Of a DNA stretch of 64,000 nucleotides, positions 7,070 to 64,000 are shown piece after piece. The notes under the pieces are model-generated. The model saw nothing but the letters and a program-made list of their open reading frames with translations. It was not told the origin of the DNA and made no database searches. Within the stretch, counting starts at the first letter, position 1. Each line of letters begins with the position of its first letter. Source of the stretch: an uncultured bacterium. Lineage in GTDB: Bacteria; Fidelibacterota; Marinisomatia; Marinisomatales; J089. The stretch covers positions 13,017 to 77,016 of the forward strand of contig CAZHTM010000005.1 in the NCBI GenBank assembly GCA_964535735.1, written 5' to 3'. A program made the translations under genes and the position numbers.

Positions 7070-10000
7070 CTTTCAGGAAAATGCTACCAATCGACTTCTG
7101 GAAATCCTGAGAAAACAAGGGACGAAGTCACGGAAAAAGCCGAAACCGGCAGAACCGGATCCGAGTCCCAAAACGAAATCGGAGAGTCCAGAATCACAGT
7201 CCACCTCAATATCTTCTGCACAGGTCCATAAAGATCATGTGATAGACTTCCTACTAAGTGATCTGGAATTGGAACCAGCGGTTGAGGACTCCATTCCTGA
7301 AAAGGAATCTGTCGATGTTCCCGAAATACCGATAGAACCAATTGAGGAGCCTCGAGACACTGCACCTGAGATAACCATCGACGAATCGCCTGAAGATGAC
7401 GCGGCCGAACTGGTATTTCAAGCTGAACAACCGGAGCAGATTGAACCGGATGTTGCCTCCAGTTCACCGGCCGATGAAGACGACCAAGAATTAACATTTA
7501 TCCCGGATGATGAAGAAGGCGTGGGACCTCCCAAATTTGATGAATCTTCACCGCCCTCTGAAACCGGCGAAAAAGATGATCAAGAGGACTTCTCACTCAC
7601 GTTCAGGGATGAACAGGGCGTCGAACCGGCTGTTACAGAGGGCGACAGCGAAACAGCGGAACTCCCCTCGACGGAAGACTCTGAATTAAATCTGGAATTA
7701 GAGCCCTCACCTGCACCCTCTTCCTTAAAGGAGGAAGCGCCAGCAACAGATTTATCTCCGGATAGTGAAGATTCTGTCCTTGAATCCGATGAATTATTTG
7801 ACGAGACACTCGATTCCGCAGACACTCCACCGGAGAAAGACACACCTGTAGAAGAAGTACAAACATCAACTGAGGCTGAAACCACCCCTGAAGCGTCGGA
7901 ACCGGCACCTGAATCAGATTCCCCCGAGGGAACTGACGATATTGAATTTGATTTTGAAGCGTTAACCGAATCCTTAAAAGCAAACAAAAAACAAGCCCCC
8001 CCAGAGGGTTCGACAGATTTTGATTTTAGTCCGCTGGAATCCACAGAACCGGCCGTCATCGAAGATACTTCTGATGCTGAGCCGGAGTCTTTACCGGACG
8101 AGGAGCCAAAAGCAGAGGTGCCCACCAGCACAAGTGAAGAATCGCCAGAAGCAGAAGAACCGGACCAAAAACAAACGGTGGAGCCAACTGACAGTGAAGA
8201 GGATCCGTTTGCCAATGTAGATTTTGGCGGTCGTGAGCCTATTTCAACGGAGGAGCAGGAATCGGATACAACGACGGAAATCCCCGTTGAAACCGAGGAA
8301 CCGGAAGAAGATGTTTTGGCGGAAAAAGAGGAACAGGAAGAACCGACTCCGGACGAAGAAGATAATTTTGATGACTTTGATGATGATCTGGAAGAATCGG
8401 ACACGGTCACGTTTTTCTATCAGAAAGAAAAGAAATTTTCCGTTAAATATCTCTTGTCGAAAATTCGTCCAAATCGTTCCCGAATCGGTCTGGACATTGG
8501 CAGCTATGCCATTAAATATGTTCTGGCCAATGATATTAGTGGAGAAATCTCAATTGAAGATTTCGGTTATGTAAAAATACCCAGCAATATTCGGGGGAAT
8601 AAAAAAGAAACAGCCACATTTATAAAAAATACCGTTCGGTCTATTCTAAGTGAAAACGAACTTAAAAAATCCAAGATCAACTTACTAATTAGCGGATCAG
8701 ACATTGGAATTAAGAATATTCAGATGCCCAAAGTTGGGAAAAAGGAGCTACAGGAAGCCGTAAGATGGTCAACAAAAAAGCACCTTTCCTTTTCCGCTGA
8801 CGAATCGGTTCTGGACTTTAAGGTTTTAAAAGAGACCGTTGTTGATGGCGTTCCCAAATTAGATATTTTAGTGGTAGCGGCTTTGGAATCACTGGTGGAA
8901 GATCAGATCAGTTTTCTTTCAGGTCTGAAAATACCCAGTAAAATTCTTCCCACCCCGCTGGCCATGTGGCGGTATTATGTGGGTCATTACCCTACCGAGA
9001 ATCTGCAGAATGTGATGGTGATAGACATTGGACATGAAACGACCATGATCAATGTGATTCATGATCAGGAATTGCGGTTTGCTCGGGAAATCGGCGTATC
9101 CGGAAAAGATTTAACGGAAGCCTTAATCGGATCTATGACCACTTCGCGGGGAGAACGCGTTAATGTAGAAGAAGACCAGGCCGAATTCTTCAAAATCAAA
9201 TACGGGTTTCCACTAAAAGAAACTGAAAATCGAGTTACGGATGAAGATATTCCTCTGGTGCAACTCTCGTCCCGGCTCCGATCTCCCTTAGAAAAACTCG
9301 CGAACGAAATCCAACGATCCATTCAATATTACGCGAAGGAATTCTCCTTCGGTCCTATTGATAAAATCTACCTTTGCGGTGGCACCGCTAGTATGATGAA
9401 TTTAGTGGATTTTCTGTCTGATTATTTAAATATGGACGTTCAGGTCAGTGATCCTTTGAGGATTTGGACCATTGAAAAATCGTTATCAAACCTGGAACTC
9501 CTGGAAGATAATTCAACCGCTTTAGCGACGCCGGCTGGCATCTCCATCGATATTTCGCCAGAACTCAACCTTCTTCCACAAAAATACGTTCAGGAAACTC
9601 AGACACGGACGTTAAAAACAGTATTTCGTCTCTTTCTGTTAGCAGCGGTTGTATCGGTAGTAAGTTTATCAACCACAGTCTCCATGAAAGGGAAAACCTA
9701 TACATCTGAACTGGAATCTTTAAAACAACGGGTCGGCCAGATGTCCTCCCTTGAGAAGCAAGTTGTCCAATTACAGGAAACAAAAAAAGACGCACAAAAG
9801 AAAGTGGGTGTGCTGAAAAAAATGTTTAATGAACCCACATTCAACGTTCAAGTTTTACGCATCATCAGCAATTTGCTACCAGAAAATGTATCGTTGGAGT
9901 CGCTGGAAAACATCGGTCATATCACATCATCTTCGCAGGCACAAATCCGCTTAGTCGGATATATTGAAACCACAAAATATGACGCCAATGTTCGGTTAGC

Positions 10001-18113: not shown

Positions 18114-19439
18114 TTGGATCATCCACCCGTTCGGATTCAAAAGGTTGATACGGGTTATGACGCCTTGAATTATTTACAATTGAATTCCGTGGATGGCGTA
18201 ATCGTGACCGATAAACTGGACCTGATTTCTCCTGTCGATACTATTAAGCGGCTTACAGCGCATCCTCATCGGTTTCCCATCTGGTTATGGATCACCCAAC
18301 CCACCATTCAAACTTTAAGTAATTATCTTAAGGCTGGTTGTGACCGCTGGTTATTGTCATCCTCATCAAAGGACATATTAATACAACTGATTAAAACCGG
18401 ATTAAACCAATTCGGGTCCTATTCAATTGTAGACCAGAAGCGCTTTCAAATACAAAAAATATACGGAATCAATAACCTGATCGGTTCGTCTGCCGTGATG
18501 ATGGACTTGTATTACGCTCTGGAACGAATCATCAATACCGAAATATCGGTTTTAATCCAGGGAGAAAGTGGCTCCGGGAAAGAACTTGTAGCCCGGTTAA
18601 TCCATTTAATAAGTCCCCGTGCCGACGAAAAAATGGTGAGTTTAAATTGCGCTGCTGTTCCTAGTAATCTCATGGAAAGTGAATTGTTCGGTTTCGAAAA
18701 AGGCGCTTTTACCGGCGCGAATACACAAAAAAAGGGGAAATTCGAATTTGCCCACAAAGGAACCCTGTTTTTAGATGAAATCGCCGACATGGACCTTTTG
18801 ATGCAAAGTAAAATCCTCCGTGTGCTGGAACTTCAAGAGTTCGAACGTATTGGAAGTAATGAGCCAAGGAAAGCCGATGTCCGCATCATTTCCGCCACCA
18901 ATAAAAACCTAGATAAAGCCATTCAAAAAAATCGATTCAGGTTAGATTTGTTTTACCGAATAAACAGCTTCACAATCTCCATACCACCTCTTCGTGAACG
19001 GTACGGGGATTTTTTACCCTTAATGGTATATTTTCTCCAGCAGTCCAACAAAAAAAACCATCGAAACATACAGACTTTCGACTCGGATGTACTATCCGTT
19101 CTCTATTCATATTCGTGGCCTGGTAATATTAGACAGTTTGAAAGTTTTTTGATCCGCGCGGCATTGTTTTCCGACGGACCCCATTTGAAAGCGGAGACCG
19201 TAGCCTCATTAATCAAGCCGCTTAAGAAAGCAAACTTTACAACCGGGCATATATCTTCAACAGAACGAAAGCCATCCGTATCGACCATAGAAGAGATGGA
19301 GCGGACAGCAATATTAAATGCCTTAAAAGAAGTGGGCGGAAATGTGACTGCTGCCGCTAAGAAATTAGGGTTGAGCCGTGTCACTGTTTGGCGTAAAATG
19401 GAACGCTATAAGATTAAAAACGAAGGACCACGAGCTTAG
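18114..19439 (+). CDS. pilR: Sigma-54-dependent transcriptional activator (PilR-like) with degenerate receiver domain
   Basis: AAA+ GESGSGKE, the GAFTGA motif (EKGAFTGA) and a C-terminal Fis-type HTH (AAKKLGLSRVTVWRKMERY). TTG start. Receiver-like sequence continues upstream in frame to 17997 with no canonical start. Confidence 0.8.
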   Translation: MDHPPVRIQKVDTGYDALNYLQLNSVDGVIVTDKLDLISPVDTIKRLTAHPHRFPIWLWITQPTIQTLSNYLKAGCDRWLLSSSSKDILIQLIKTGLNQFGSYSIVDQKRFQIQKIYGINNLIGSSAVMMDLYYALERIINTEISVLIQGESGSGKELVARLIHLISPRADEKMVSLNCAAVPSNLMESELFGFEKGAFTGANTQKKGKFEFAHKGTLFLDEIADMDLLMQSKILRVLELQEFERIGSNEPRKADVRIISATNKNLDKAIQKNRFRLDLFYRINSFTISIPPLRERYGDFLPLMVYFLQQSNKKNHRNIQTFDSDVLSVLYSYSWPGNIRQFESFLIRAALFSDGPHLKAETVASLIKPLKKANFTTGHISSTERKPSVSTIEEMERTAILNALKEVGGNVTAAAKKLGLSRVTVWRKMERYKIKNEGPRA

Positions 19440-20745: not shown

Positions 20746-20762
20746 TTGGCACAGTTATTGAG
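20746..20762 (+). promoter_or_regulatory. Sigma-54-type promoter candidate TGGCAC-N5-TTGA upstream of pilA
   Basis: TGGCAC at 20747-20752 and TTGA at 20758-20761, with correct GG-N10 spacing. The -12 element is GA rather than GC. It is about 50 nt upstream of the AGGAGA RBS/ATG 20823, next to a PilR-like activator gene. Confidence 0.55.
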
Positions 20763-52699: not shown

Positions 52700-55600
52700 T
52701 CAGTCCTCCTGTGAACTTACTTGGCGGATTCGTTTCAGCAATGCGGCTTGTTTCACGGGTTTGGATAGATAATCAGTACAACCGGCCTTAATGCACTGTT
52801 CACGATCGGATACAAACGCATGGGCCGTAAGAGCAATCACGGGAATTGATTTCCATTCCTTGGATTTACGCATATCCCGAACCAAGTTTAGTCCATCTTC
52901 CTGTCCGGCTAAGGAAAGATCCAGTAGGACGACTTTGGGTTTAATTTTTTTCAAAACGTCTTTGGCTTCCTGGACACTGACTGCATAATACAAATTATAC
53001 CGCGATTTCAGGAAATATTCCATGAGTAATTGAGATGAGGGATCGTCTTCAACCACCAGAATATCGTCTAAAATTTCCTCAGAGATCAATTCTTCCATCT
53101 GAACGCTATCCGAGGATGAAGGACGGGATGCGGTACTGTGAGTTACCGGAATAAATTCCAAACGAAACGTGGTTCCCACATCCTTTTCACTTTCCACAGA
53201 AATCTCTACAGAGTTCATATCCAGACATCGCTTTGTGATGGATAAGCCTAGACCCAACCCCTGATATTTTTTTGTAAAACCGGTGCTTTCTTGAGAAAAA
53301 ACGTCGTACATATGTTTCATATATTCCCGGGAAATACCGATACCGGTATCCTTAATATATAGCGCGTAGCGATCCTTCTCGGATTTTAAATAAACTTGAA
53401 TCGTCCCTGACGGTGTGTATTTAATCGCATTATCCACCAAATTGGAAATTGCTTTCAGGATACTTTCCTTATCCCCGTGTATGATGGGCTTGCGGACCTC
53501 TGAAAGATTTACCAATTCCAGATCGCGCATTTTGATGGTGGCGCTGTGCTCTTTAACCACCTGATTGATTATTTCGTTCAAATCCAGGTCTTCCGGATTA
53601 AGAGTAAACGTGCCGGCTTCAATTTGAGAAATATCTAATACTTCATGTACGGTGCGCATAAGACGCTCACCACTAGCCTGGATAATATCAATCACCTCAT
53701 TACGTTCTTCGGGGGATTTAATGGCATCATCTTTCCGAAGTAAATCCACAAATCCCAGAACCGAATTCAGAGGAGTACGAATTTCATGGGACATATTAGC
53801 CAAGAACAGCGTTTTTACCCGTTCCCCCTCCTGGGCTTTTTCCAAGGCTTCTTCCAGGCGTTGTCGATCTTTTTCCCGTTCCGTGATGTCATGAATCAAT
53901 CCTGAAAACACCGGGCTTTCCTGATCTTCCGTCTGAACCACCTTGGCCGTCATGAGACACGTCATGGCGCTTCCATCTTTTTTCTTTAATACCACTTTAA
54001 AATCCCGTACAAATCCCTCCTTTTCGATTTGCTCCATAAAGGCCTTCGTGGCTTCAGGATTTACGTAGAAATCGTGGATATTAAGCCTTAGTAATTCTTC
54101 CCGACTATATCCGAACAAAGCTTCACCGGCGGGATTAATATCCAGAATTTGTCCGTCGGGTGCACTGAGATAGATCGTATCAAGGGATTCTTCAAAAAGA
54201 GATCGGAATTTTGCTTCACTTTCTTCCAACTTGGCCAAGGTTTCCTTTTTCTCGGTAATATCTTCTTTGACGGCTAAAAAGTGCTGCGTTTTTCCTTGAT
54301 CATCCACCACCGGCGATATAATGACACTTTCCCAGTATAAGCTGCCATCCTTCCGTTTATTACGAAATTCTCCTTGCCATATTTTCCCTGCTGAAATCGT
54401 GGTCCATAATTCCTGGTACTCTTCCTGAGTGGTATGTCCCGATTTCAATATATTGGCTTTTTTCCCAATCACTTCCTCACTTTTCCAACCAGTGACTTCC
54501 GTGAATTTGGGATTTACATATTCAATGTTGCCGTCCAAACCCGTTATCATTACAATCGAGGGGCTTTGTTGGACCGCTTTATTCAGAATTTGAATTTCGC
54601 TTTCTGCTTCTTTTAGCGCCGTAATATCTACGGCAATGACTTGATACGCCGTATCCCCTTTATATTGAATAGGGGTGGATGTCACCAGTGCATAGACCGT
54701 GTTCCCATCCCGTCGAAGGAGTTTTTCTTCCGCCAATACCAATGGTTTTCCGGTTTTTATCATGGATTCAATTCGCTTCAGTACAAAATCCCGGCTATCG
54801 GGATGCACCACATCCAATACCGACTGACCTACTAGTTCCTCGTAGGAGTCGTACCCCATCAATCGCACCGCCTCCTTATTGATAAAACGCCAAACACCCT
54901 TCGAATGAATACCGATTGCCACCGGCGCAAGATCTACTAATTTCCGGTAACGTGTTTCGCTTTCCATTAATCGGATTTCATCCTGTTTACGATCTTCGAT
55001 ATCCCGGGTAATGGATAAAATATGAGGCTCACCATTCATATTGATTATCCTGGCCGACATGAGCCCGGTATGAACCCTCCCATCTTTGAACCTGAATTTT
55101 GCTTCCAAATTGTTGCAGACTCTATTTTTCATTAGACCGGCCACCAATCGGTTCCGATCTTCAGGATTATACCACATATTTAATTCATCAGAGGTTTTAC
55201 CTTCTACATCTTCCCATGTATAACCCGTTATAGCCGTAAATCCTTCATTAATTTCTACATACAGTCCGTCGGAAAGTCGGTTGATATTGACCGCATCCGG
55301 ACTGGTTCTAAAAGCTATGCGGAACTTTTCTTCCGATTCTCGAATTTTCTCATAGGCTATCCGTCGCTCCAGTTCCGACCCTGCCCGGACCGCAAATACC
55401 TTTAACAACGATTCCACCAGCCATTCATTCTTCATGGCCTGACGGGACATAACCACGACAATTCCCAGGGGCTCATTTTGAGTGGAAAAAAGGGGCATGC
55501 CGTAGTAGCAAGCGATACCCATCTCGCGTAACAAGTGATCATCCGGAAACTGATCCTGCACATGATTCGAATAATGTTGATAGCATTGCCCCACCACATT

Positions 55601-58333
55601 CTCACATGGCGTATTCTTTAAATCATACACGAAATTAGGAGATAGTTTTCTGTCCTGCGCAAAAGCCACAGTCTGAATTTGTTCCGGTTCCTGATTGATG
55701 AGTTCCCCCACAAAGGCAAAGTCACAATTCAGAACAAGACTTAGCTCCAGTACTAAAGATTCGAAAAATGATTCTTCCGGTGTAACCGAGACACTTTCCG
55801 CTAGGTGTTTAAGCGCCGCATCGGATATATCTCGTTGAATGGAACTTCCCAGAAGATTAGCAGCGATTGTTAGGGATTCCACTTCGACTTCAGACCAGTG
55901 TCGGTCGGATCGCCCGTCGTCAAAACGTAATAACCCCCACCATTCAGAGCCCGTATAGATCGGAATAGCTAATAAGCTCTTTGATTTATTTTTCTTGAAA
56001 TAGATTTGATCCTTGGGCGACATATCAGAGATTCGGGCAACTATTTTTTCTCCCTTTTCCAGCAGCCTTTCCCAACGATCAAGTCCTATATTTCGGAACG
56101 ACTGGGCCTTCTTACGATCTTTGAATCCAAACCCCTTGGCAGCCCATTCCCCTCGTATCGTGGTCAACCGTTCACCAGATTCAGATATTTGATTTTCAAA
56201 TAACGTAACTCGAGTGACCCCCACGGCTTCACCCAATTTGGCCAGCACCGGATCAACACAATCGGACCAGGATTCTGCCCGGAGTACTTGTTCGGCAGCC
56301 TCGGTGATGACCGAAAGAATCCGGTCACGTTGCCTTAATTCGGCTTCCACTCGTTTACGTTCAGTAATATCTCGATGAATCACTAAAATGCCATCTTCAC
56401 CATTAGGCAAGGGGACTTTTACCTCGTGAAGTTCCAGAAAAACAGTGGATCCATCCCGTCGTTTATTCTCTACATCGTGGCGTAGGTATCCGGTTTTAAG
56501 AATAGCCTTGATATTAGCTCTGACTTTGGATCTGTTTTCAGGGGAGGTTAACTCCTGAACATTCATCCCCACCAATTCATCGGGATCAAACCCCAAAATC
56601 CGACAACTAGCAGGATTACAATCGATAATCGTTCCGTCTTTATTTTCGAGAATAAAACCATCCGGCGAAGCTTGAAATAATGTAGCATATCGTTTCTGTG
56701 TCTCTTCCAGATTTCGGGCTGTTTGAACTACTTCCGTTTCATCCCGGAAAAATCCTACTAATCCATATCTGGTCTCTGTTCGGAAAGTCGTTATTATTTG
56801 TTGGACGATCTTTTCTTCACCCTGCGCCGTCTTAATGGGAACTCTGATTGATTGTTCAACTGAAGTCAAATCTCCCGTTTCCAAAATAGATTGAATCCGG
56901 TTGGCAATCTGTTCCATTTTTGCCGAAGATTTTTTATTAGTGGTCATGAAATCCATTTGTACGTCCCAAATGGGTCGCCCAATGACATCGTCCGCGGGTA
57001 CACCGGTAATCTCTTCCATGCCTTGGCTCCATTCCACCAGTTTCCCTGATTCATCCGTAACGATAATACCTTCCAGAGCCTGCTTTAGAACATTTCGGAT
57101 CAGGCGGTCTTTTCGCACTAAATCCTGACTCAGGGTGACCATCTCGGTAATTTCGGTAATATATCCCACAAAAGATTTGATCTGGTCATGACGGTCCCGA
57201 ACAATCATCGTCAAATCATGGACCCAATGTTCTTTACCACGAGCGTCTAAAATGCGGTACCGTTGACTGAAGTGGGTGGAGCCAGCTTTGATATAATCTT
57301 CAACTTCCTGAATCACCCGTTTGAAATCTTCCGGATGAATCAAGTCCGAATATGTGATTTCGCCCTCTATGAGTTGTTGTACCGAATATCCATAGAGCTG
57401 CGTCACATTGGGAGATACATATTTCACGGGTATGCGGTCCTCACCCGCCGCCCATTTAAATATTACTGTGGGTCCTGCCCGAAATAGTTGGCGTTCTTCC
57501 TGAAGCGCTTGACGGATTTTCCGCTCTCGGGTGATATCCTCTACCGTGCCTTCGAAGTAAAGAACTTCACCGGCGTGGTCCCGGACTAACGAGACACTTT
57601 CCCGAACATAAATCTCTTCACCATCTTTTCGCTTCCAAATAGCTTCCAACCCCTGAATATGACCTTCTTTTTTAAGCTTTTCAATAAACTCTGTTCGGTC
57701 ATATTGAGGTTCATATTTCTCATCATTCAGATTCCGCCCAGCGATTTCCTCAAAAGAATCATAACCCAACAAGCGAATCAAGGCCTCATTGGCTATTAAA
57801 ACTTCCCCTTCTGGTGTAGTACGATAAAGTCCTACGGTCAGATTGTTGAATAAAAATCTGAATTGGGATTCATTCTCCAAAAGATGAATTGCTTGTTCCC
57901 GTACTTTAGTTTCTAAGTCTTTCCGCTGATATAGGACTTGGTCTTCTAAAGCTTTTATCCGCAACATGGCTCGTACCTGAGCGACCAATTCACCCTGATC
58001 AATGGGTTTGGCTAAATACACATCACCGCCAGCATTTAAACCTTTGATCTTGTCTTGCGATTCAAGGTGGACACCAGTAAGAATAACAATGGGAATATAG
58101 GATGTGGTTTGAGACAATCGTATTTGGCGGCAAACTTCAAGACCGTCTATTCCGGGTAAAGCCAGATCAACAATTACCACATCCGGAGGTGTTTTAGAAA
58201 GAATGTTTAGCCCTTCCTCACCGCTAGTAGCTGTGAGTAGTTTTAACCGGGGAAATTCTCTCTGCAGTACACGTTTAATCGTCGTTAACGTGTCAGAATG
58301 ATCATCTATAATTAATAGGGTAGACATGGGCAT
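52700..58333 (-). CDS. Giant hybrid sensor kinase (1877 aa): REC - multiple PAS/PAC - GAF - PAS - HisKA - HATPase_c - REC
   Basis: N-terminal receiver (LIIDDHSD...VIVDLALPG), many PAS-like repeats, H-box FLANMSHEIRTPLNSVLGF, G-box GLGLGLS, and a C-terminal receiver (ILVVEDD...VLLDLSL...YLSKP). Confidence 0.9.
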   Translation of the reverse strand: MPMSTLLIIDDHSDTLTTIKRVLQREFPRLKLLTATSGEEGLNILSKTPPDVVIVDLALPGIDGLEVCRQIRLSQTTSYIPIVILTGVHLESQDKIKGLNAGGDVYLAKPIDQGELVAQVRAMLRIKALEDQVLYQRKDLETKVREQAIHLLENESQFRFLFNNLTVGLYRTTPEGEVLIANEALIRLLGYDSFEEIAGRNLNDEKYEPQYDRTEFIEKLKKEGHIQGLEAIWKRKDGEEIYVRESVSLVRDHAGEVLYFEGTVEDITRERKIRQALQEERQLFRAGPTVIFKWAAGEDRIPVKYVSPNVTQLYGYSVQQLIEGEITYSDLIHPEDFKRVIQEVEDYIKAGSTHFSQRYRILDARGKEHWVHDLTMIVRDRHDQIKSFVGYITEITEMVTLSQDLVRKDRLIRNVLKQALEGIIVTDESGKLVEWSQGMEEITGVPADDVIGRPIWDVQMDFMTTNKKSSAKMEQIANRIQSILETGDLTSVEQSIRVPIKTAQGEEKIVQQIITTFRTETRYGLVGFFRDETEVVQTARNLEETQKRYATLFQASPDGFILENKDGTIIDCNPASCRILGFDPDELVGMNVQELTSPENRSKVRANIKAILKTGYLRHDVENKRRDGSTVFLELHEVKVPLPNGEDGILVIHRDITERKRVEAELRQRDRILSVITEAAEQVLRAESWSDCVDPVLAKLGEAVGVTRVTLFENQISESGERLTTIRGEWAAKGFGFKDRKKAQSFRNIGLDRWERLLEKGEKIVARISDMSPKDQIYFKKNKSKSLLAIPIYTGSEWWGLLRFDDGRSDRHWSEVEVESLTIAANLLGSSIQRDISDAALKHLAESVSVTPEESFFESLVLELSLVLNCDFAFVGELINQEPEQIQTVAFAQDRKLSPNFVYDLKNTPCENVVGQCYQHYSNHVQDQFPDDHLLREMGIACYYGMPLFSTQNEPLGIVVVMSRQAMKNEWLVESLLKVFAVRAGSELERRIAYEKIRESEEKFRIAFRTSPDAVNINRLSDGLYVEINEGFTAITGYTWEDVEGKTSDELNMWYNPEDRNRLVAGLMKNRVCNNLEAKFRFKDGRVHTGLMSARIINMNGEPHILSITRDIEDRKQDEIRLMESETRYRKLVDLAPVAIGIHSKGVWRFINKEAVRLMGYDSYEELVGQSVLDVVHPDSRDFVLKRIESMIKTGKPLVLAEEKLLRRDGNTVYALVTSTPIQYKGDTAYQVIAVDITALKEAESEIQILNKAVQQSPSIVMITGLDGNIEYVNPKFTEVTGWKSEEVIGKKANILKSGHTTQEEYQELWTTISAGKIWQGEFRNKRKDGSLYWESVIISPVVDDQGKTQHFLAVKEDITEKKETLAKLEESEAKFRSLFEESLDTIYLSAPDGQILDINPAGEALFGYSREELLRLNIHDFYVNPEATKAFMEQIEKEGFVRDFKVVLKKKDGSAMTCLMTAKVVQTEDQESPVFSGLIHDITEREKDRQRLEEALEKAQEGERVKTLFLANMSHEIRTPLNSVLGFVDLLRKDDAIKSPEERNEVIDIIQASGERLMRTVHEVLDISQIEAGTFTLNPEDLDLNEIINQVVKEHSATIKMRDLELVNLSEVRKPIIHGDKESILKAISNLVDNAIKYTPSGTIQVYLKSEKDRYALYIKDTGIGISREYMKHMYDVFSQESTGFTKKYQGLGLGLSITKRCLDMNSVEISVESEKDVGTTFRLEFIPVTHSTASRPSSSDSVQMEELISEEILDDILVVEDDPSSQLLMEYFLKSRYNLYYAVSVQEAKDVLKKIKPKVVLLDLSLAGQEDGLNLVRDMRKSKEWKSIPVIALTAHAFVSDREQCIKAGCTDYLSKPVKQAALLKRIRQVSSQED

Positions 58334-58673
58334 GCCCTGGTTTTATAGCGTTTACAACTACTCACAGCTCCTAAGAACTTACCTCCTCCTAATTCTACTT
58401 TTCTGCTACGGTTATATTATATAGAAATACCGAAACTTTGGCAGGAAAATTCCAGGAAATAGCTGCCATAAAATGGTAGGGCAAGCCCATGAAGTAACTT
58501 GGGAAAGCTTTATCACAATAGTGACTGCTTTCTCCTTTAGGTCACCAGATATTGGTCCTGATTACAATTTCTTTAGCTAGGATCTGAAAAGATCGTAGGC
58601 AATCATTGGTCTTTATTACCTGATGAAAGAAGGATACCTCGCACTTATGTTATAGAATTATTTCACTTCATAC

Positions 58674-59285
58674 TTATTTGACATGACAGGTCAAACAAAG
58701 AGTGCTTCCATTGGGTGTAATTTTTAATAACTCAGGGTTACTACTATAGCCATTATGGACATCATGACAAGAGGAGCATTCCAAGGTCAATCCAGCGCTA
58801 AGTAAATCTTCCTGAATCGTACCTCCCAAAGGTGTAACTGCTGTAGTGGGATCCTTCAATTCACCATCTTGATTGGCCAGAGTTTGATCATAAACAAAGG
58901 AAATGGGATGGTCATTCGTTAAATCCGTACCCATGTGTTCCCGACCAGTTATCAACCAAGTACCATTGGTAGTACCACCATAATTGTCCACGGCGGTCAA
59001 ACCATCATGGCAAGATAAACAAAGCTTGGACACACCGGACGGTTGTCCTACCGTAGCATCCAGAGTCGTCGTGGAATAGGGCGTAAACGTCTGACTTGTT
59101 ACCTGGTGATTCCAGAGCGGGGAGTTGGGAACGGTGGTATTGGCATTATGGGGAGTATGGCAGGGAACGCAGAGTTCCCCAGTAGCTGTATAATTTCGGA
59201 AATCATGACTCGTACCCTGAATGGTTTGAGCCCAGGAAAAGGAGAGCCACAGCAGGCCAATTAAAAGAGCGTAGAATCGTTTCAT
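58674..59285 (-). CDS. Periplasmic tetraheme c-type cytochrome, copy 1 (203 aa)
   Basis: Signal peptide ending AQT. Four CXXCH motifs: CVPCH, CLSCH, CSSCH, CLTCH. Confidence 0.85.
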   Translation of the reverse strand: MKRFYALLIGLLWLSFSWAQTIQGTSHDFRNYTATGELCVPCHTPHNANTTVPNSPLWNHQVTSQTFTPYSTTTLDATVGQPSGVSKLCLSCHDGLTAVDNYGGTTNGTWLITGREHMGTDLTNDHPISFVYDQTLANQDGELKDPTTAVTPLGGTIQEDLLSAGLTLECSSCHDVHNGYSSNPELLKITPNGSTLCLTCHVK

Positions 59286-59333
59286 GGTTTAGTCCTGTAC
59301 TTTATTCTCAAAGATTCAAATGAATGTAAAAGG

Positions 59334-59367
59334 AAGGCCCCCGCTCTCAGATGAAAACGGGGGCCTT
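59334..59367 (-). terminator. GC-rich hairpin between the two cytochrome genes (partial terminator/processing site candidate)
   Basis: AAGGCCCCCG-N14-CGGGGGCCTT, a 10-bp perfect stem, followed on the minus strand by CCTTTTAC. Confidence 0.5.
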
Positions 59368-59390
59368 CTACATAAAGCTATACCAATTGG

Positions 59391-60005
59391 TTATTTAGAA
59401 TGGCAGGTCAGGCAAAGAGCACTTCCAGAATTGCTTTTAACTAACAATTTTGTTCCATTGACAGCCACGGTATTGTGGACATCATGGCAGGAGGCACATT
59501 CCATTTTGCCGCCGATCAATAAATCTTCTGCAATGGTACCACCCAATCCACTCGTGCTGGATGGATCCTTCAGTTCACCATCGGCAGTTGCTAAAGTAGC
59601 ATCATAGGTAAATGAAATAGGATGATCATTGCTTAGATCGGTACCAAAATTCTTATTACCACCAACAAAATTGGTCCCATTAGTTTTTCCACCAAAGTTA
59701 TCCATAGCAACGGTTCCATCATGACAAGATAGACAAAGCTTAGAGGCTCCATCCGGTTGACCGGACGCGGCATCAAACGTGGAGCTGGTGTACACCGTAA
59801 ACGTTGCTGTTGTCACCTCGTGATTCCACAAAGGGGCACCATTCACACCAGTATCAGCATTATGTGGTGTATGACAAACTACACAGATCTCACCGGTTGT
59901 ATTCCAGTTTTTACCACTGAAATCATGATCAGATCCAACAATGGTCTGTGCGGAAACTATTCCAATGAGCGTCAGGCTTGTTATAATTGCGGTTAACGTA
60001 CGCAT
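59391..60005 (-). CDS. Periplasmic tetraheme c-type cytochrome, copy 2 (204 aa)
   Basis: CVVCH, CLSCH, CASCH, CLTCH. I moved the start to ATG 60005 (MRTLTAIITSLTLIGIVSAQT), which follows GAGAGG. It is co-linear with copy 1. Confidence 0.85.
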   Translation of the reverse strand: MRTLTAIITSLTLIGIVSAQTIVGSDHDFSGKNWNTTGEICVVCHTPHNADTGVNGAPLWNHEVTTATFTVYTSSTFDAASGQPDGASKLCLSCHDGTVAMDNFGGKTNGTNFVGGNKNFGTDLSNDHPISFTYDATLATADGELKDPSSTSGLGGTIAEDLLIGGKMECASCHDVHNTVAVNGTKLLVKSNSGSALCLTCHSK

Positions 60006-60067
60006 CGTATTACCTCTCTTTTTTCTTTTAAGTTTATTAGGTTCAAAAAACATTCACTTTCAAATAC

Positions 60068-60082
60068 ACAAATACCATGCCA
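60068..60082 (-). promoter_or_regulatory. Sigma-54-type promoter candidate TGGCAT-N5-TTGT upstream of the cytochrome genes
   Basis: The minus strand reads CTGGCATGGTATTTGTG with correct GG-N10 spacing and one mismatch at -12. It is about 50 nt upstream of ATG 60005 and downstream of a sigma-54 activator gene. Confidence 0.5.
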
Positions 60083-60257
60083 GTAAACGATAATAGGATG
60101 ATTTCATCCGATTTTACCAACTTAGGAGTGATATCAGTCACATACTGCTCTGGTTTCCCGACGATCAATGGCCTAAAGAGTCGCATGCGTTTTCTTGACT
60201 TACTGTAGATACGGTATCAAATATTTTCAAGGGTTATGGGCGTACAGAATACGTAAC

Positions 60258-60295
60258 TGTGTAAAATCACACATCAAATTGTGGAATATTCCACA
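60258..60295. promoter_or_regulatory. Two TGTG-N8-CACA palindromes 22 bp apart (TGTGTAAAATCACACA and perfect TGTGGAATATTCCACA): candidate enhancer/activator sites
   Basis: Sites at 60258-60273 and 60280-60295. Centre-to-centre spacing is 22 bp, and they lie about 200-230 bp upstream of the sigma-54-like promoter. Confidence 0.45.
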
Positions 60296-60311
60296 GATTC
60301 AGACATCTAAC

Positions 60312-61697
60312 TTAGAGGAGACCGTGTTTTTTCATTTTATATCTAATTTGGTCACGGGATAGTTTCAGGCGTTTAGCCGCATGAACCTGGTTACCATTTT
60401 CCTGGGTCAAGGCCCATTGGATGATCATATTCTCCAGTTCATCCCAACTTTTTCCAGCAAAAACGGAACCTGGCTCAACAGCGTTTACAACATTTTTATC
60501 ATTTGAGATGGGTTTGGATTCCGATTGGATGTGAACAGGTAAATGCCATGGTTCAATAACGGAGGTCCGCTCTAACAAGAATATCCGTTCCAACGTATTT
60601 TTTAACTCCCGAACATTTCCCGGCCATGGATATCCAATAATCAAATCCAAGGCGCTTTTTGAAATACCTTTCACCGATCGTCCAAATTCGGCATTAAATA
60701 AATCAATGAAGCGATTTACCAGCAAAGGAATATCTTCTTTTCGTTCACGGAGGGGTGGTAGCACCAGCGTAATCACATTGAGCCTATAATATAAATCTTC
60801 CCGGAAATTCCCGTCCTGCATTTCCTGTTTCAAGTCCCGATTGGTAGAGGCAATGATCCGGACATTAACTTTTATCTCCCGAGTTCCTCCGACCCGATAA
60901 AAGGATTGGGTCTCGATAAACCGCAACAATTTAGCCTGAAACCCGATGGGGATTTCCCCAATTTCATCCAGGAGGATGGTGCCCATATTGGCCATTTCCA
61001 CCTGACCGGGTTTCCTGGATTTCGCATCCGTAAAGGCTCCTTTTTCATAGCCGAATAATTCACTTTCCAGCAGGTTTTCTGATAATGAAGCACAGTTAAC
61101 AATAATAAAGGGTTTGTCTTTGCGAGGTCCCTGTTCGTGGATAACCCGGGCCAGGGTGTCTTTCCCAGTGCCTGTTTCACCCAGAAGTAGAATTGTGCCT
61201 GTATCAGTTTGAACCAGTTTTTGCGCGGTTTCCATCACTTCCCGCATTTTTTTAGATTGGCTGATATAGGTTCCCAATTGGAAGCGCTGTTCTTCCTGTT
61301 GTTTCAAAATCGAAATTTCGCGGGATTTCTCTTTTTCTTCAAGAGCCCGCCTGACCATAACGGTCACTTCATCAAAGTTGACCGGTTTATTCAAATATTC
61401 CCGGGCGCCCAATTTCAGCGCTTCCACTGATACTTCTTCGGTTCCATAAGCGGTCATGAAAAAGAATACGGTTTCCTCCCGAATTGGCTGTAGTTGGCGC
61501 AAAATTTCAATTCCATTCGTGTCAGGCAAACGATAATCCATAAAAATCACATCTGGTGGGTCATGCAGCGCCTGCTCGATACCGGGTTTCCCAAATTCAG
61601 AAATCGACGTGGCAAACCCCATCTTTTTCAAGTGCTCCGATAAGGACCAAGCTACCAGTTTTTCATCTTCGATAATTAGGGCGTGTGGAGTAGTCAT
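60312..61697 (-). CDS. NtrC-family sigma-54-dependent response regulator
   Basis: Receiver (LIIEDEK...IFMDYRLPD), AAA+ GETGTGKD, GAFTDA variant of the GAFTGA loop, and a C-terminal HTH (AAKRLKLSRDQIRYKMKKHGL). Confidence 0.9.
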   Translation of the reverse strand: MTTPHALIIEDEKLVAWSLSEHLKKMGFATSISEFGKPGIEQALHDPPDVIFMDYRLPDTNGIEILRQLQPIREETVFFFMTAYGTEEVSVEALKLGAREYLNKPVNFDEVTVMVRRALEEKEKSREISILKQQEEQRFQLGTYISQSKKMREVMETAQKLVQTDTGTILLLGETGTGKDTLARVIHEQGPRKDKPFIIVNCASLSENLLESELFGYEKGAFTDAKSRKPGQVEMANMGTILLDEIGEIPIGFQAKLLRFIETQSFYRVGGTREIKVNVRIIASTNRDLKQEMQDGNFREDLYYRLNVITLVLPPLRERKEDIPLLVNRFIDLFNAEFGRSVKGISKSALDLIIGYPWPGNVRELKNTLERIFLLERTSVIEPWHLPVHIQSESKPISNDKNVVNAVEPGSVFAGKSWDELENMIIQWALTQENGNQVHAAKRLKLSRDQIRYKMKKHGLL

Positions 61698-63193
61698 AAA
61701 GTCCCCCCTTCTGAATACATTAAAGCAGGCAATTCCACCTTGAATTCAGTCCATCCTTCGGGAGCGCTTCGCACCGAAATCGTCCCCCCGTGTTTTTCGA
61801 CAATGGACTTGGTCAGCGATAAACCTAAACCTGTGCCCTTATGTTTGGTGGTATAAAATGGTTTAAAGATCGTATCCTGCATGTCTTCGGGCACCCAACT
61901 CCCCGTATTTTTAACCGTGATCTCCAAAATGTCTTTCTCCGTATTGCAACGGGTACGGATTTCGATTGACCCACCGTCGGTTCCCACAGTGGCTTGATAG
62001 GCATTGAGAATCAAATTGGCAAAAACCTGCTTCAATAAATCACTATCCCCTTGTATAACTGAACAATCAGAAGCCAAATCTACTTCCAGTTTGATCTGAT
62101 CACTGTTAATCTTTGGGCGTTGCAAAGCGATGGATTGTTCCAGAACGTCATGGATATCAACCGGGGCGAATTTGGGATCACGTGGTTTAGCATAATCCAT
62201 CAAATCCCGAATGGTCTTGGTGACGCGATTAATTTGAGAGAACATTTCATCAAATATAGGTTTTTCCTTTAAATCGCTGTGCTCGTTCAAAATGATTTCC
62301 AGAGCGTTACGAATTCCGGAGATAGGGTTTTTAATTTCATGAGCAACGCTGGCCGCCAGTTCACCTACACTGGCTAATTGACTGGCTCGTTCGATCTGGT
62401 CCTGGTGCAAGATGTCCACTTCTTTTTGTGTGCGTTCCAACTGTTCCGTCATTTTTGTAATATATTCAGCCAGTCCACTTAATTCTCCGGGAGTATCCAA
62501 ATAAACTCGTGTAGAAAGATCTCCGGCCTTAATGCGTTCGATTCCTGCTTTCAGTTCCGTCAATGGTTTTTGGAAAATTCGATGGTGAACAACACCTAAA
62601 ATGAGAGAAAGAACGGCGATGAAAAAGAAAAAGGATAGAAAATCATACTTGAGCATCATGGCTTCCACTTTAATCTCGGCCGAATCATTAACACCAATTT
62701 CAATATAACCATTAACCTCATTTTCCGATCCATGGCATTTATGACAAAATTCATCGTTCGGAACACCAGAAATAATTCGTATAACGGGTAGTGAATCTCC
62801 CGATGTATACGCCGCCATATCTTCTATATTTAGTTCACTTACATCCTTTCCATTTAAGTTCGATATCTCGCCGATATATTTTTTATCATTGGCGAATACA
62901 ACCTTAAAGTTTGTATCTAAAACTTTTACCCATCGAATTTTTTCATTTGTCGATAATCCTTCCAGCAACAACTGAAAATGGTCAGGAGCATGGTATTTCA
63001 TGTTATGAATGATATTGTTCTCCAATAGGGCTTCGATAGGGCTCATTAGTTCAAACATATAGTCGTGAAAATGTTGCTCCCGATGTTTGTTTATAATGAG
63101 CGTAATGCCGCTTCCAAATACGAACAAAAAAATCAAGGACAGAATGATCATCTGACTGCGCCAAGTAATCCGTTTCGATAACGGGTTTTTCAT
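61694..63193 (-). CDS. Sensor histidine kinase with periplasmic domain carrying a CXXCH heme-c motif, HAMP, HisKA, HATPase_c
   Basis: Two TM helices flank a ~150-aa periplasmic domain with CHKCH (62732-62746). HAMP; H-box ASVAHEIKNP; G-boxes. A 4-nt overlap with the regulator gene. Confidence 0.85.
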   Translation of the reverse strand: MKNPLSKRITWRSQMIILSLIFLFVFGSGITLIINKHREQHFHDYMFELMSPIEALLENNIIHNMKYHAPDHFQLLLEGLSTNEKIRWVKVLDTNFKVVFANDKKYIGEISNLNGKDVSELNIEDMAAYTSGDSLPVIRIISGVPNDEFCHKCHGSENEVNGYIEIGVNDSAEIKVEAMMLKYDFLSFFFFIAVLSLILGVVHHRIFQKPLTELKAGIERIKAGDLSTRVYLDTPGELSGLAEYITKMTEQLERTQKEVDILHQDQIERASQLASVGELAASVAHEIKNPISGIRNALEIILNEHSDLKEKPIFDEMFSQINRVTKTIRDLMDYAKPRDPKFAPVDIHDVLEQSIALQRPKINSDQIKLEVDLASDCSVIQGDSDLLKQVFANLILNAYQATVGTDGGSIEIRTRCNTEKDILEITVKNTGSWVPEDMQDTIFKPFYTTKHKGTGLGLSLTKSIVEKHGGTISVRSAPEGWTEFKVELPALMYSEGGTL

Positions 63194-63208
63194 AACGCGA
63201 TCCTTTCG

Positions 63209-64000
63209 CTAAGGTAAAAAAGTTGAATGAATTTTTTTTGCTGATTGCACAGCGCTTTTGCGATATTCATCGCAGGCCCGGTCCGGCTGTCCCAATACCG
63301 TCAATACTTCTCCTTTCCAGAAATGTACACGATACATTTCCGGGATCGTTTTAATGGCCGATAAATACGCCAACGCCTGTTCCGGGTGGCCTTGATAATA
63401 ACTCAACAGCCCCAAACCAAAATTTCGATACCCCGAATAGGGGCGTTGATCCGGTAGTAACCGAAACATGGAATCCGCTTTTGTCCAATCCTCGAGATGT
63501 AAATACGTCATGGCCAACAATACTTGACCGCTCACTGACAGGGTGTCAATAGCCAAAAGTTGGTTTAAAGCTATCTGATAATGTTTTTTATCCACCAGTT
63601 TTCGCGCCAAATCTTCCTTACGCACTTTTCGCTTCGCGCTCCGGTCGTAGGATACAGTACTCGGTAGTGGAATATCATCCGGAAAATATGGATTTAGAGC
63701 CTTCGTAAGATGGGATTTTAACGTCGGAGTAAATCCCGGCATATAATTGAGGATTTCCCCTTTTGGTGACAGAATGAAGAGTGTTGGGAACACCCGAACA
63801 CCAAATTGAGCATATAATCCATGAAGGGTGTCGTCTATCCAGGGCCAGGGATGGGAACGCGTGGTATCCAACACCGTCCCTGGGAGCGGCGCCAGTATTT
63901 CCACTACCGGCATTTGTTGGCGAATTCCTTCTGGAATAAATTCATTTAGTTGATTTACAAACCGATCGGAATAGCGATGGTCCTCACGGGTGAAAACCAG
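63209..64000 (-). CDS. Thioredoxin-fold + TPR protein; 5-prime end runs off the window
   Basis: The reading frame stays open upstream of the tracked ATG (63913) to base 64000 (LVFTREDHRYSDRFVNQLNEFIPEGIRQQ...). FPTLFILSPKGEIL is thioredoxin-like, and the C-terminal half is TPR-like. Confidence 0.6.
   Translation of the reverse strand: MVFTREDHRYSDRFVNQLNEFIPEGIRQQMPVVEILAPLPGTVLDTTRSHPWPWIDDTLHGLYAQFGVRVFPTLFILSPKGEILNYMPGFTPTLKSHLTKALNPYFPDDIPLPSTVSYDRSAKRKVRKEDLARKLVDKKHYQIALNQLLAIDTLSVSGQVLLAMTYLHLEDWTKADSMFRLLPDQRPYSGYRNFGLGLLSYYQGHPEQALAYLSAIKTIPEMYRVHFWKGEVLTVLGQPDRACDEYRKSAVQSAKKIHSTFLP

Follow-up and report, generated by a model that had tools for sequence, protein, structure and literature searches.

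Could a bacterium place the gene of a cytochrome filament subunit under the control of a sensor kinase that is itself a hemoprotein? The question is raised by the minus strand of positions 58674 to 64000 in a 64,000-nucleotide stretch of DNA, hereafter the window, from an uncultured bacterium of the Marinisomatia (contig CAZHTM010000005.1, positions 13,017 to 77,016, assembly GCA_964535735.1). This strand has five open reading frames (ORFs), which encode the 3' part of a tetratricopeptide repeat (TPR) protein, a sensor histidine kinase with the motif CHKCH in its periplasmic domain, an NtrC-type response regulator and two tetraheme cytochromes. A first-pass annotation, made from the sequence alone, had proposed that a heme-based signal switches on small periplasmic cytochromes, and that a hairpin between the two cytochrome genes possibly sets different levels of the two. 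All of the genes, the CHKCH motif, the 4-nt overlap shared by the regulator and kinase genes, the palindromes, the -24/-12 promoter element and the hairpin are found where it had placed them. Nanowires made of cytochromes, OmcS, OmcE and OmcZ, are known structurally. The keyword 'regulat' is absent from the text of a recent review of cytochrome nanowires, and the control of nanowire making is not addressed there. Here, we compared the locus with protein families, solved structures and orthologous loci. On balance, we think it likely that the kinase and the regulator form a heme-Cache/NtrC switch, which makes up the regulatory tail of an omcE-type cluster for extracellular electron transfer.

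Results

The tetraheme cytochromes belong to the OmcE family

Both tetraheme proteins have a Sec signal peptide and four CXXCH motifs, and they are 57% identical to one another. Their Pfam matches are Paired_CXXCH_1 and Cytochrome_C7. The family is strongly conserved, with more than 7,800 database matches, and its sources include Candidatus Neomarinimicrobiota, the Fibrobacteres-Chlorobi-Bacteroidetes (FCB) group, Calditrichaeota, Chlorobi, Gemmatimonadota, Oligoflexia, Lutibacter and Saprospiraceae. Alignment A4 comprises 43 sequences, 41 of them homologues sampled from these matches, to which cytochrome 1 is 64-82% identical. The four CXXCH motifs and five further histidines are invariant across this alignment. 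Four of these histidines, H27, H48, H128 and H177, pair with histidine residues of OmcE, and the histidine motifs common to the family and to OmcE are the HD-L/F arm, TPHN, NDHP and VH. The fifth one, H62, in the motif PLWNH, is invariant in the 43 FCB-type members and corresponds to Arg in both solved OmcE proteins. H62 could be an alternative ligand, or it could tune proton or redox properties.

The profile of alignment A4 gave exactly two matches in the PDB, both over the full length: 7TFS, the OmcE filament of Geobacter sulfurreducens (E = 2.5e-37), and 9YUQ, a 218-residue, 16-chain "putative multiheme cytochrome c" (E = 6.4e-35). We presume that 9YUQ is the OmcE bundle that Petersen et al. 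described for Desulfuromonas soudanensis. In full-length BLASTP alignments to OmcE, cytochromes 1 and 2 have sequence identities of 34% (E = 1e-31) and 36% (E = 2e-33), respectively. The window proteins are thus not the small periplasmic cytochromes of the first-pass annotation but members of the OmcE family that are encoded inside an omcE-type cluster. They resemble OmcE in being tetraheme proteins of about 200 residues, at 34-36% identity, that keep the four CXXCH motifs and the four distal histidines. They differ from the Geobacter and Desulfuromonas proteins in the invariant H62 (WNH) in place of Arg, and in being encoded as two tandem paralogs. From this homology, it is fairly likely that they form extracellular filaments of the OmcE type.

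The kinase has a predicted heme-Cache sensor domain

The kinase can be described as composed of a transmembrane (TM) segment, a predicted periplasmic heme-c sCache domain, a second TM segment, and HAMP, HisKA and HATPase_c domains. The CHKCH motif lies between the two predicted TM segments, whose hydrophobic stretches are also visible in the kinase sequence, and it is conserved in the family, in agreement with the heme-c motif that had been claimed for the periplasmic domain. The N-terminal 205 residues matched no model in Pfam (E<=1) or NCBIfam. In a word-indexed protein database, the sensor domain had 0 matches as a query and the family profile had 2. The word index misses this family, and its members were recovered with an exhaustive HMMER scan of 1.84e9 cluster representatives, which gave 16 relatives; the family is therefore rare. 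Its alignment holds 17 sequences, namely these 16 representatives and the window protein. A scan of GTDB genomes with the kinase returned generic kinase-core matches only, in unrelated bacteria (L001-L003), and a metagenome scan with the motif YHxPDHFQ gave 180 pattern matches, of which 0 were confirmed.

The invariant residues of the sensor family are M65, Q74, C150, C153 and G162. C150 and C153 of the heme attachment motif are present in 17/17 sequences and H154 in 16/17, while Met65, which is part of the motif HNM, is present in 17/17. Apart from CXXCH, the family has no invariant cysteine. In one member, P0131, CKDCY replaces CXXCH; the proximal histidine is lost there, and both cysteines and the methionine are kept.

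A phmmer search of the PDB with the single sensor domain found nothing meaningful, but the family profile (A2) matched 3B42 (GSU0935; E = 7e-7) and 3B47 (GSU0582; E = 8.4e-4) over about 115 residues. In the profile alignment, the CXXCH motif falls on C140, C143 and H144 of GSU0935, and Met65 pairs with residue 26 of the 3B42 chain. This residue is Met60, given an offset of 34 that was confirmed through C140, C143 and H144. Moreover, the Pfam family PF21563 (Mcp40H-20_sensor) is matched by 9 of the 17 members, with a best E-value of 5.6e-10. The AlphaFold2 (AF2) model of the sensor, with a predicted local distance difference test score (pLDDT) of 83, comprises a TM helix, a long periplasmic helix, a five-stranded sheet and a TM helix. 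Two long helices, 11-66 and 171-204, flank the β-sheet domain. CHKCH (150-154) is located inside a short helix, 148-154, between the β-strands 137-145 and 160-169. When this model was submitted to Foldseek, the single-Cache domains of WalK, KinD, CitA and DctB were found, in addition to 3B42 and 3B47.

Since the CXXCH motif is conserved, the fold is that of a Cache domain and the profile matches GSU0935 and GSU0582, the kinase very probably has a periplasmic heme-c sensor, and we predict with high confidence that it binds heme c. As judged from these alignments, the sensor is a divergent, Met-ligated heme-Cache domain of the GSU0935 type, in which heme binding is predicted. In GSU0935, Met60 is the distal heme ligand, which is bound when the heme is reduced and released on oxidation (PMC8396549). 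NO and CO bind to both GSU0582 and GSU0935 and displace Met60 there, and in the Geobacter heme sensor domains the spin state and the ligand switch with redox, at -156 and -251 mV (PMC8396549). The window sensor shares with them a periplasmic single-Cache/PAS-like fold between two TM helices, a single CXXCH in a short helix inserted between β-strands, and a methionine of the N-terminal helix at the Met60 position. However, GSU0935 and GSU0582 are chemoreceptors, while the output here is a HAMP-HisKA kinase with a sigma-54 activator. Furthermore, the window sensor, with its predicted heme, has diverged past detection by Pfam and belongs to a rare subfamily tied to FCB omcE-type clusters. It would add a histidine-kinase, Met-ligated branch to the heme-Cache sensor family, a branch that escapes the current Pfam models.

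A resemblance to the DUF3365/Tll0287 type of heme sensor had also been suggested. At the family level it does not hold. The hidden Markov model PF11845 (Tll0287-like) does not match the window protein and matches 3 of the 17 family members weakly (E at least 0.013), and the Tll0287 structure 5B82 aligned to the family profile in the motif region only, with E = 2.1; of the two profiles that the first-pass annotation had named, it is Paired_CXXCH_1 that was found, on both tetraheme proteins. The heme of Tll0287 has His/Cys ligation (PMC12889525), in contrast with the invariant methionine of the window family and its lack of an invariant cysteine outside CXXCH. Membership in PF11845 was rejected on both grounds, the insignificant matches and the absence of a conserved cysteine for His/Cys ligation. 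At the superfamily level the resemblance stands, as a 2026 preprint places DUF3365 and GSU0582/0935 together in the 'sCache_heme' family (PMC12889525).

Palindromes and a sigma-54-type promoter are conserved ahead of the omcE-like gene

The regulator is complete, with a receiver (REC), an AAA+ and an HTH_8 domain (Response_reg 7.7e-21, Sigma54_activat 2.8e-67, AAA_lid_14, HTH_8 4.4e-10). It has the motifs EDE and FMDYRLPD and the Walker A sequence GETGTGK. Right after its stop codon there are two palindromes of the type TGnGGAAT-ATTCCnCA (GGAATATTCC-type), in the window as well as in the orthologous loci L006, L010 and L012. In all four, the two sites are spaced by 19-22 bp and are located 150-270 bp upstream. 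In the window, a distance of about 205 bp separates site 1 from the -24 element downstream of it, and site 2 is at 22 bp, or two helical turns, from site 1. The same four loci have an element TGG[CT]A[CT]-N5-TTG[CTA] at 61-77 nt before the ATG of the omcE-like gene; that of the window is TGGCAT-N5-TTGT, 77 nt before the ATG at 60005. The consensus of sigma-54 promoters is TGGCAC-N5-TTGCW, with GG at -24, GC at -12 and a fixed spacing. The element of L010 is canonical (TGGTAC-N5-TTGCA), that of L006 has TTGA, and those of L012 and L016 have TTGT.

Four loci share the order kinase, NtrC-type regulator, palindromes, -24/-12 element and omcE, with sensor identities down to 29%. It is this positional conservation in orthologous loci (phylogenetic footprinting), and not the statistics of the window, that supports the regulatory link. 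The claim that the NtrC-type regulator very probably drives the tetraheme gene is supported by the conservation of the promoter and the paired palindromes in L006, L010 and L012. Probably, it binds the palindromes and thereby activates the sigma-54 promoter of omcE. L016 is more distant, and its kinase likewise has a CXXCH (CFSCH) in the periplasmic part. In this cluster, the sequence cGGCAC-N5-TTGTA lies 75 nt before the ATG, and both the palindromes and the recognition-helix sequence of the regulator differ. These changes are consistent with co-variation of the regulator protein and its site. The heme-Cache kinase gene of L016 (4939-6389) has an in-frame TAA between the HisKA and HATPase parts (NSQRE*ILIRIEDDGKG), for which a pseudogene, a sequencing error or recoding are possible explanations.

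A sigma-70-type promoter for the omcE-like gene was also sought and was rejected, with nothing convincing in the window and 0 sigma-70-like promoters in the intergenic region of L006, where 2.4 were expected. A search for further regulator sites across the window with GGAWWWWTCC, which is uninformatively short, gave 7 occurrences where 3.6 were expected, and the idea of such extra sites was rejected.

The locus is the tail of an omcE-type cluster

A contig from the Joint Genome Institute, L004, is identical to the window DNA and extends past 64000. In the direction of transcription, its genes encode a protein of about 650 residues (cut at the contig end), an NHL β-propeller protein (NHL 8.4e-21), a 12-heme cytochrome, a 13-heme cytochrome, the thioredoxin (Trx)-like/TPR protein, the kinase, the regulator and the OmcE-like proteins 1 and 2. 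The Trx-like/TPR protein had been given as first in order; its place ahead of the kinase is right, but it is not the first of the unit. The locus is the tail of a cluster of about 11 kb that runs past 64000, rather than a self-contained unit of TPR, kinase, regulator and cytochrome genes, and its bacterium belongs to the FCB group and probably to the Marinimicrobia. From the cluster genes through the regulator stop, the genes overlap or are separated by gaps of 15 nt or less, which makes it probable that the two-component system and the conduit genes share a transcript. The synteny of the cluster extends to L006 (sensor about 58% identical), L010 (43%), L011 (36%) and L012 (29%; Candidatus Neomarinimicrobiota).

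The 12-heme cytochrome (551 residues, 12 CXXCH; L004 2828-4483) begins with a complete OmcE-like module of about 200 residues (7TFS, E = 1e-27). This cytochrome, which has an N-terminal TKHNLS arm, is conserved in L006, L010, L012, L015 and L016. As a candidate base or adaptor, it could polymerise together with the OmcE-like subunits. The 13-heme cytochrome (433 residues, 13 CXXCH; L004 4493-5794) is MtrA-like (6R2Q_A of MtrCAB, E = 1.8e-17). The protein of about 650 residues matched nothing in Pfam, NCBIfam or the PDB. It has no TM helix and 13-16% aromatic residues, and in 3/5 orthologues it ends with RNF or RKF, which is consistent with an outer-membrane barrel. Together with the 13-heme protein, it makes a probable porin-cytochrome conduit (L012 686-2641 for the protein of about 650 residues). 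The cluster resembles MtrCAB and other porin-cytochrome conduits in encoding the MtrA-like protein and the barrel-like protein close to each other. It differs from MtrCAB in that the barrel-like protein has no detected MtrB or MtrC homology, and in that an NHL propeller and OmcE-like modules are found instead.

The minimal omcE cluster of Desulfuromonadia comprises two multiheme cytochromes, β-propeller lipoproteins, OmcE and a large β-barrel, and according to Petersen et al. such a cluster context separates nanowire OmcE from look-alikes (bioRxiv 10.1101/2025.10.22.684050). By gene content, L004, L006, L010 and L012 are omcE clusters in this sense, with a putative barrel: the omcE-like genes have as neighbours a large barrel-like protein, a β-propeller and two multiheme cytochromes. 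There is one propeller here, compared with two in Desulfuromonadia. The published OmcE list covers five phyla, and neither FCB nor Marinimicrobia are among them (bioRxiv 10.1101/2025.10.22.684050). In contrast, the clusters described here are on contigs of the Marinimicrobia/FCB type, and their filaments are predicted. Complete clusters of this kind in such contigs would give long-range extracellular electron transfer a wider ecological range. A further difference from known OmcE clusters is the two-component system with a putative heme sensor, and the sigma-54-type promoter, directly upstream of omcE.

In three related clusters, L007, L008 and L015, the place directly upstream of the omcE-like gene is taken by a multi-PAS HisKA_3 kinase, which is cytoplasmic, together with a NarL/GerE regulator. 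It looks as if the PAS kinase/NarL pair and the heme-Cache/NtrC pair had been exchanged for one another at a fixed position. A two-component system ahead of omcE is a recurring design, in which the type of sensor is exchangeable.

A conserved hairpin separates the two cytochrome genes

The hairpin begins 22 nt past the stop of cytochrome 1. Its 16-bp stem, with 10 GC pairs, has a folding energy of -35.5 kcal/mol (z=-7.0 against shuffled sequences), and it is followed by CUUUUACAUU, a short, interrupted U-tract. In L006, L010 and L012, the orthologue is single-copy, and a terminator-like hairpin is also present about 20-50 nt past it; the stem of L006 is recognisably homologous to that of the window. 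Given these hairpins after single-copy orthologues, the hairpin is an ancestral terminator, that of a monocistronic omcE unit.

Paralog 2 has a mean identity of 57% to the family (paralog 1: 70%), and four of the positions invariant in the family are changed in it. It is about equally distant (53-62%) from all family members, and a counterpart is not present in L006, L010 or L012. Paralog 2 is a lineage-specific addition and a divergent copy. The 47 nt between the hairpin and the ATG of paralog 2 hold no recognisable promoter, and no terminator-like hairpin follows this gene. Paralog 2 may be expressed by read-through past the hairpin.

These observations bear on an alternative in which the hairpin is an attenuator that fixes the ratio of two co-transcribed paralogs, both within the sigma-54 unit. 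The absence of a promoter-like element in the 47 nt before the second ATG speaks for it, as does the short, interrupted U-tract, with which some read-through is plausible, and so does the missing terminator after paralog 2. However, a hairpin that ends the single-copy gene in L006, in homologous form, and in L010 and L012 predates the second gene, and the divergence of paralog 2 agrees better with a copy that was inserted later or is relaxed than with a tuned pair. We therefore regard the attenuator as rather unlikely. The earlier idea that the hairpin sets the levels of the paralogs gives way to a conserved terminator, which did not arise as a balancing device and for which balancing may now be a side effect.

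Proposed mechanism and alternatives

In the mechanism that we propose, the periplasmic domain of the kinase would carry one covalent c-type heme, with His154 as the proximal and Met65 as the distal ligand. A change in the state of the heme would shift the N-terminal helix that bears Met65. The trigger could be a redox-linked binding and release of this methionine, as in GSU0582 and GSU0935, or its displacement by a diatomic gas. The signal, transmitted by the second TM helix and HAMP, would set the kinase activity, and the phosphorylated regulator would bind the two palindromes just past its own stop codon. From about 200 bp upstream, it would then activate the sigma-54 promoter of the OmcE-like subunit gene. 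Transcription would mostly end at the hairpin, with paralog 2 expressed by read-through or from another promoter. The bacterium may in this way switch nanowire production on or off by a periplasmic redox or gas signal.

Several points weigh against this proposal. The AF2 model of the cytochrome is poor (pLDDT 43.5), and the case for an OmcE fold and interface is that of a sequence profile against the PDB. Poor AF2 models are common for heme-free predictions of coil-rich multiheme proteins. OmcE-like tetrahemes are very widespread, and some of the more than 7,800 matches need not polymerise. The window sensor domain itself has no Pfam match at E<=1 and is linked to GSU0935 by the family profile only, and the data of the locus point neither to the identity of the signal nor to its sign, activation or repression. 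The assignment of the protein of about 650 residues to a barrel comes from composition and a C-terminal F alone, and the PAS/NarL pairs of related clusters indicate that a heme sensor is not obligatory for omcE control. Within the window alone, the promoter pattern occurs 4 times where 2.05 are expected and the palindrome once where 0.43 are expected, and no rpoN gene is visible in its 64 kb. The window -12 element has TTGT and not TTGC, that is GT for GC, with GG and the spacing kept. Finally, the sigma-54 contact loop of the regulator (residues ~225-230) is GAFTDA and not GAFTGA. GAFTDA, in which F and T are kept, is found in all six orthologous regulators examined, that of the window and five others, and it is a conserved lineage-specific variant of the contact motif.

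The two tetraheme proteins could, alternatively, be ordinary soluble periplasmic carriers of the c3/c7 or NrfB type, switched on by the two-component system to match the carrier pool to the redox state. They are small, they have Sec signal peptides, and their Pfam matches are generic only; in addition, in so large a family, with members in many phyla, some may not polymerise, and the AF2 model is unusable. Soluble carriers are nevertheless unlikely, as the two proteins keep all of the heme ligands and are homologous, over their full length, to both solved OmcE filaments. The N-terminal histidine in the (K/D)HD(L/F)S arm is conserved as well, and a cluster with a barrel-like protein, a propeller, an MtrA-like protein and a multiheme protein with an OmcE module is the nanowire context of Petersen et al.

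The nature of the signal is a separate matter. We give periplasmic redox state, read through the binding and release of Met65, slightly less than an even chance of being the signal, and NO or CO sensing is its main alternative. The signal for the heme-Cache domain would then be a gas ligand, namely NO, CO or (as an oxidant) O2, rather than ambient redox potential, and the module would tie expression of the nanowire subunit to nitrosative or oxygen signals. Heme-Cache precedents point in this direction: sCache_heme domains of Pseudomonas bind NO and are proposed NO sensors (PMC12889525), and the methionine that NO and CO displace in GSU0582 and GSU0935 (Met60; PMC8396549) is the one invariant here. 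On the other hand, the neighbourhood has no NO detoxification or denitrification genes, and its context is all extracellular electron transfer. The Geobacter domains also switch by redox, so that the gas and redox readings are not mutually exclusive. Gas sensing as such seems to us improbable, to about the same degree as soluble carriers.

It is very unlikely that the adjacency is incidental, with a two-component system that controls its own operon or distant genes and an unrelated cytochrome promoter: although the link is comparative, the promoter and palindrome statistics are weak in the window alone and related clusters carry another regulator pair, the order of kinase, NtrC, palindromes, promoter and omcE is found in four loci with sensor identities from 58% to 29%, it recurs in L016 with both HTH and palindromes changed, and the intergenic region of L006 lacks the sigma-70-like promoters expected there.

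A more far-reaching version of the heme-Cache/NtrC switch is tentative and less likely than not. FCB bacteria, including Marinimicrobia, would build nanowires of the OmcE type, with subunit synthesis gated by a His/Met c-heme feedback kinase and with the 12-heme protein as an adaptor. The kinase heme would equilibrate with the periplasmic cytochrome pool, and the subunit gene would be switched when respiratory electrons back up. The OmcE-like module of the 12-heme protein would plug the filament into the conduit of the MtrA-like and barrel proteins. If this were true, no dedicated regulator of a cytochrome nanowire would have been described before this kinase and regulator, and nanowire-based electron transfer would be extended to a major uncultured marine lineage.

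The nearest functional precedent for a redox-dependent sigma-54 control of respiratory cytochromes is BccR/cbcBA of G. sulfurreducens. BccR induces cbcBA at low redox potential, and expression follows the potential of the acceptor (bioRxiv 10.1101/2021.04.15.440034). According to the passages on BccR in that report, it is, like the window regulator, a REC-AAA+-HTH activator that adjoins a cytochrome operon with a -24/-12 promoter. Those passages name no cognate sensor for BccR, while the window kinase is adjacent to its regulator and is apparently a hemoprotein. The target of BccR there is an inner-membrane bc-type quinol oxidoreductase, whereas the target in the window would be a nanowire-like subunit. 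Each component of the switch is of a known kind; the combination, and its presence in these lineages, was not found in the literature searched. It would make a compact, testable circuit with a hemoprotein sensor and a filament subunit gene as its output, and its parts are small enough to be reconstituted.

Feature coordinates and neighbouring genes

The coordinates are collected in Table 1. Cytochrome 1 really starts with the ATG at 60005: this codon has a ribosome-binding site (RBS) and gives a protein of 204 residues that is identical to the database entry P0001. An upstream ATG at 60053 was rejected, as it has no RBS and the homologues begin at the MRTL position; it would also sit at about the predicted transcription start of the gene.

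Table 1 Features of the cytochrome locus in the window (coordinates of the window unless a contig is named) and the equivalent regulator slot in related clusters.
Feature	Position	Strand	Basis
Trx-like/TPR protein, 3' part, secreted	63209..64000	-	Pfam TPR_2 3.3e-7 on the window fragment
Sensor histidine kinase, 499 aa	61694..63193	-	Pfam HAMP, HisKA, HATPase_c; AF2 topology; orthologues
Periplasmic sensor domain, residues 35-183, predicted GSU0935/GSU0582-type single-Cache fold	62645..63091	-	Profile, Foldseek, AF2
CHKCH (C150, C153, H154), heme-c attachment motif with proximal His	62732..62746	-	Conservation, alignment
Met65 codon, candidate distal axial heme ligand	62999..63001	-	Invariance, alignment to Met60
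NtrC-type response regulator, 461 aa	60312..61697	-	Pfam and NCBIfam matches
Candidate upstream activating site 1, perfect palindrome TGTGGAATATTCCACA	60280..60295	-	Recurs in orthologous loci
Candidate upstream activating site 2, degenerate palindrome TGTGTGATTTTACACA	60258..60273	-	Second site in orthologous loci
Sigma-54-type -24/-12 element TGGCAT-GGTAT-TTGT	60067..60082	-	Pattern and equivalents in L006, L010, L012, L016
OmcE-family tetraheme cytochrome 1, 204 aa with signal peptide	59391..60005	-	Conserved orthologue
Intrinsic-terminator-like hairpin, 16-bp stem, then CUUUUACAUU	59333..59368	-	Fold energy; orthologous hairpins
OmcE-family tetraheme cytochrome 2, 203 aa, divergent extra paralog	58674..59285	-	Lies past the hairpin
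Multi-PAS kinase/NarL slot	L007 5396-8000; L008; L015 5388-8000		ACCCC(N2-4)GGGGT palindromes repeated in the intergenic region

The Trx-like/TPR ORF is cut by the end of the window, and its 5' end lies about 200 nt past 64000. The complete protein, in L004 (5805-6797), has 330 residues and matches Thioredoxin_8 (1.2e-3) and Thioredoxin_2 (7e-3) in Pfam. Its Trx-like N-terminal half is cysteine-less, without CXXC. The equivalent slot also holds a TPR protein in L006, L010, L011 and L012. In L013, which has the most distant kinase/regulator pair examined, a TPR gene (9062-9661) follows the regulator and has a TPR match of the CcmH/CycH type (PF23914), which hints that the TPR proteins of these clusters could be apocytochrome chaperones.

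Directly downstream of paralog 2, the window encodes a hybrid kinase of 1877 residues (52700-58333, minus strand), composed of REC, about 10 PAS, 2 GAF, HisKA, HATPase and REC domains. A hybrid kinase (1873 residues) is in the equivalent position in L006 and is not found there in L010 or L012. In the region upstream of the hybrid kinase gene (58334-58673) no -24/-12 element was seen, and there is one GGAAAATTCC site (58444-58453) that resembles the regulator palindromes.

A type IV pilus/type II secretion system-like cluster (6185-36345, plus strand) comprises genes for PilM/N/O, a secretin, PilB/T-type ATPases, a prepilin peptidase, PilC and pilins. This cluster also encodes a second enhancer-binding protein of the window, a receiver-less sigma-54 activator (18114-19439), and the sequence TGGCAC-AGTTA-TTGA (20747-20760) lies 63 nt before the ATG of a type IV pilin gene (20823). 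This second activator and the -24/-12 element of the pilin gene give independent support for the use of sigma-54 in the organism. The pilA gene of Geobacter is sigma-54 dependent, and in the window, the pilin and the OmcE-like subunit may both be sigma-54 dependent.

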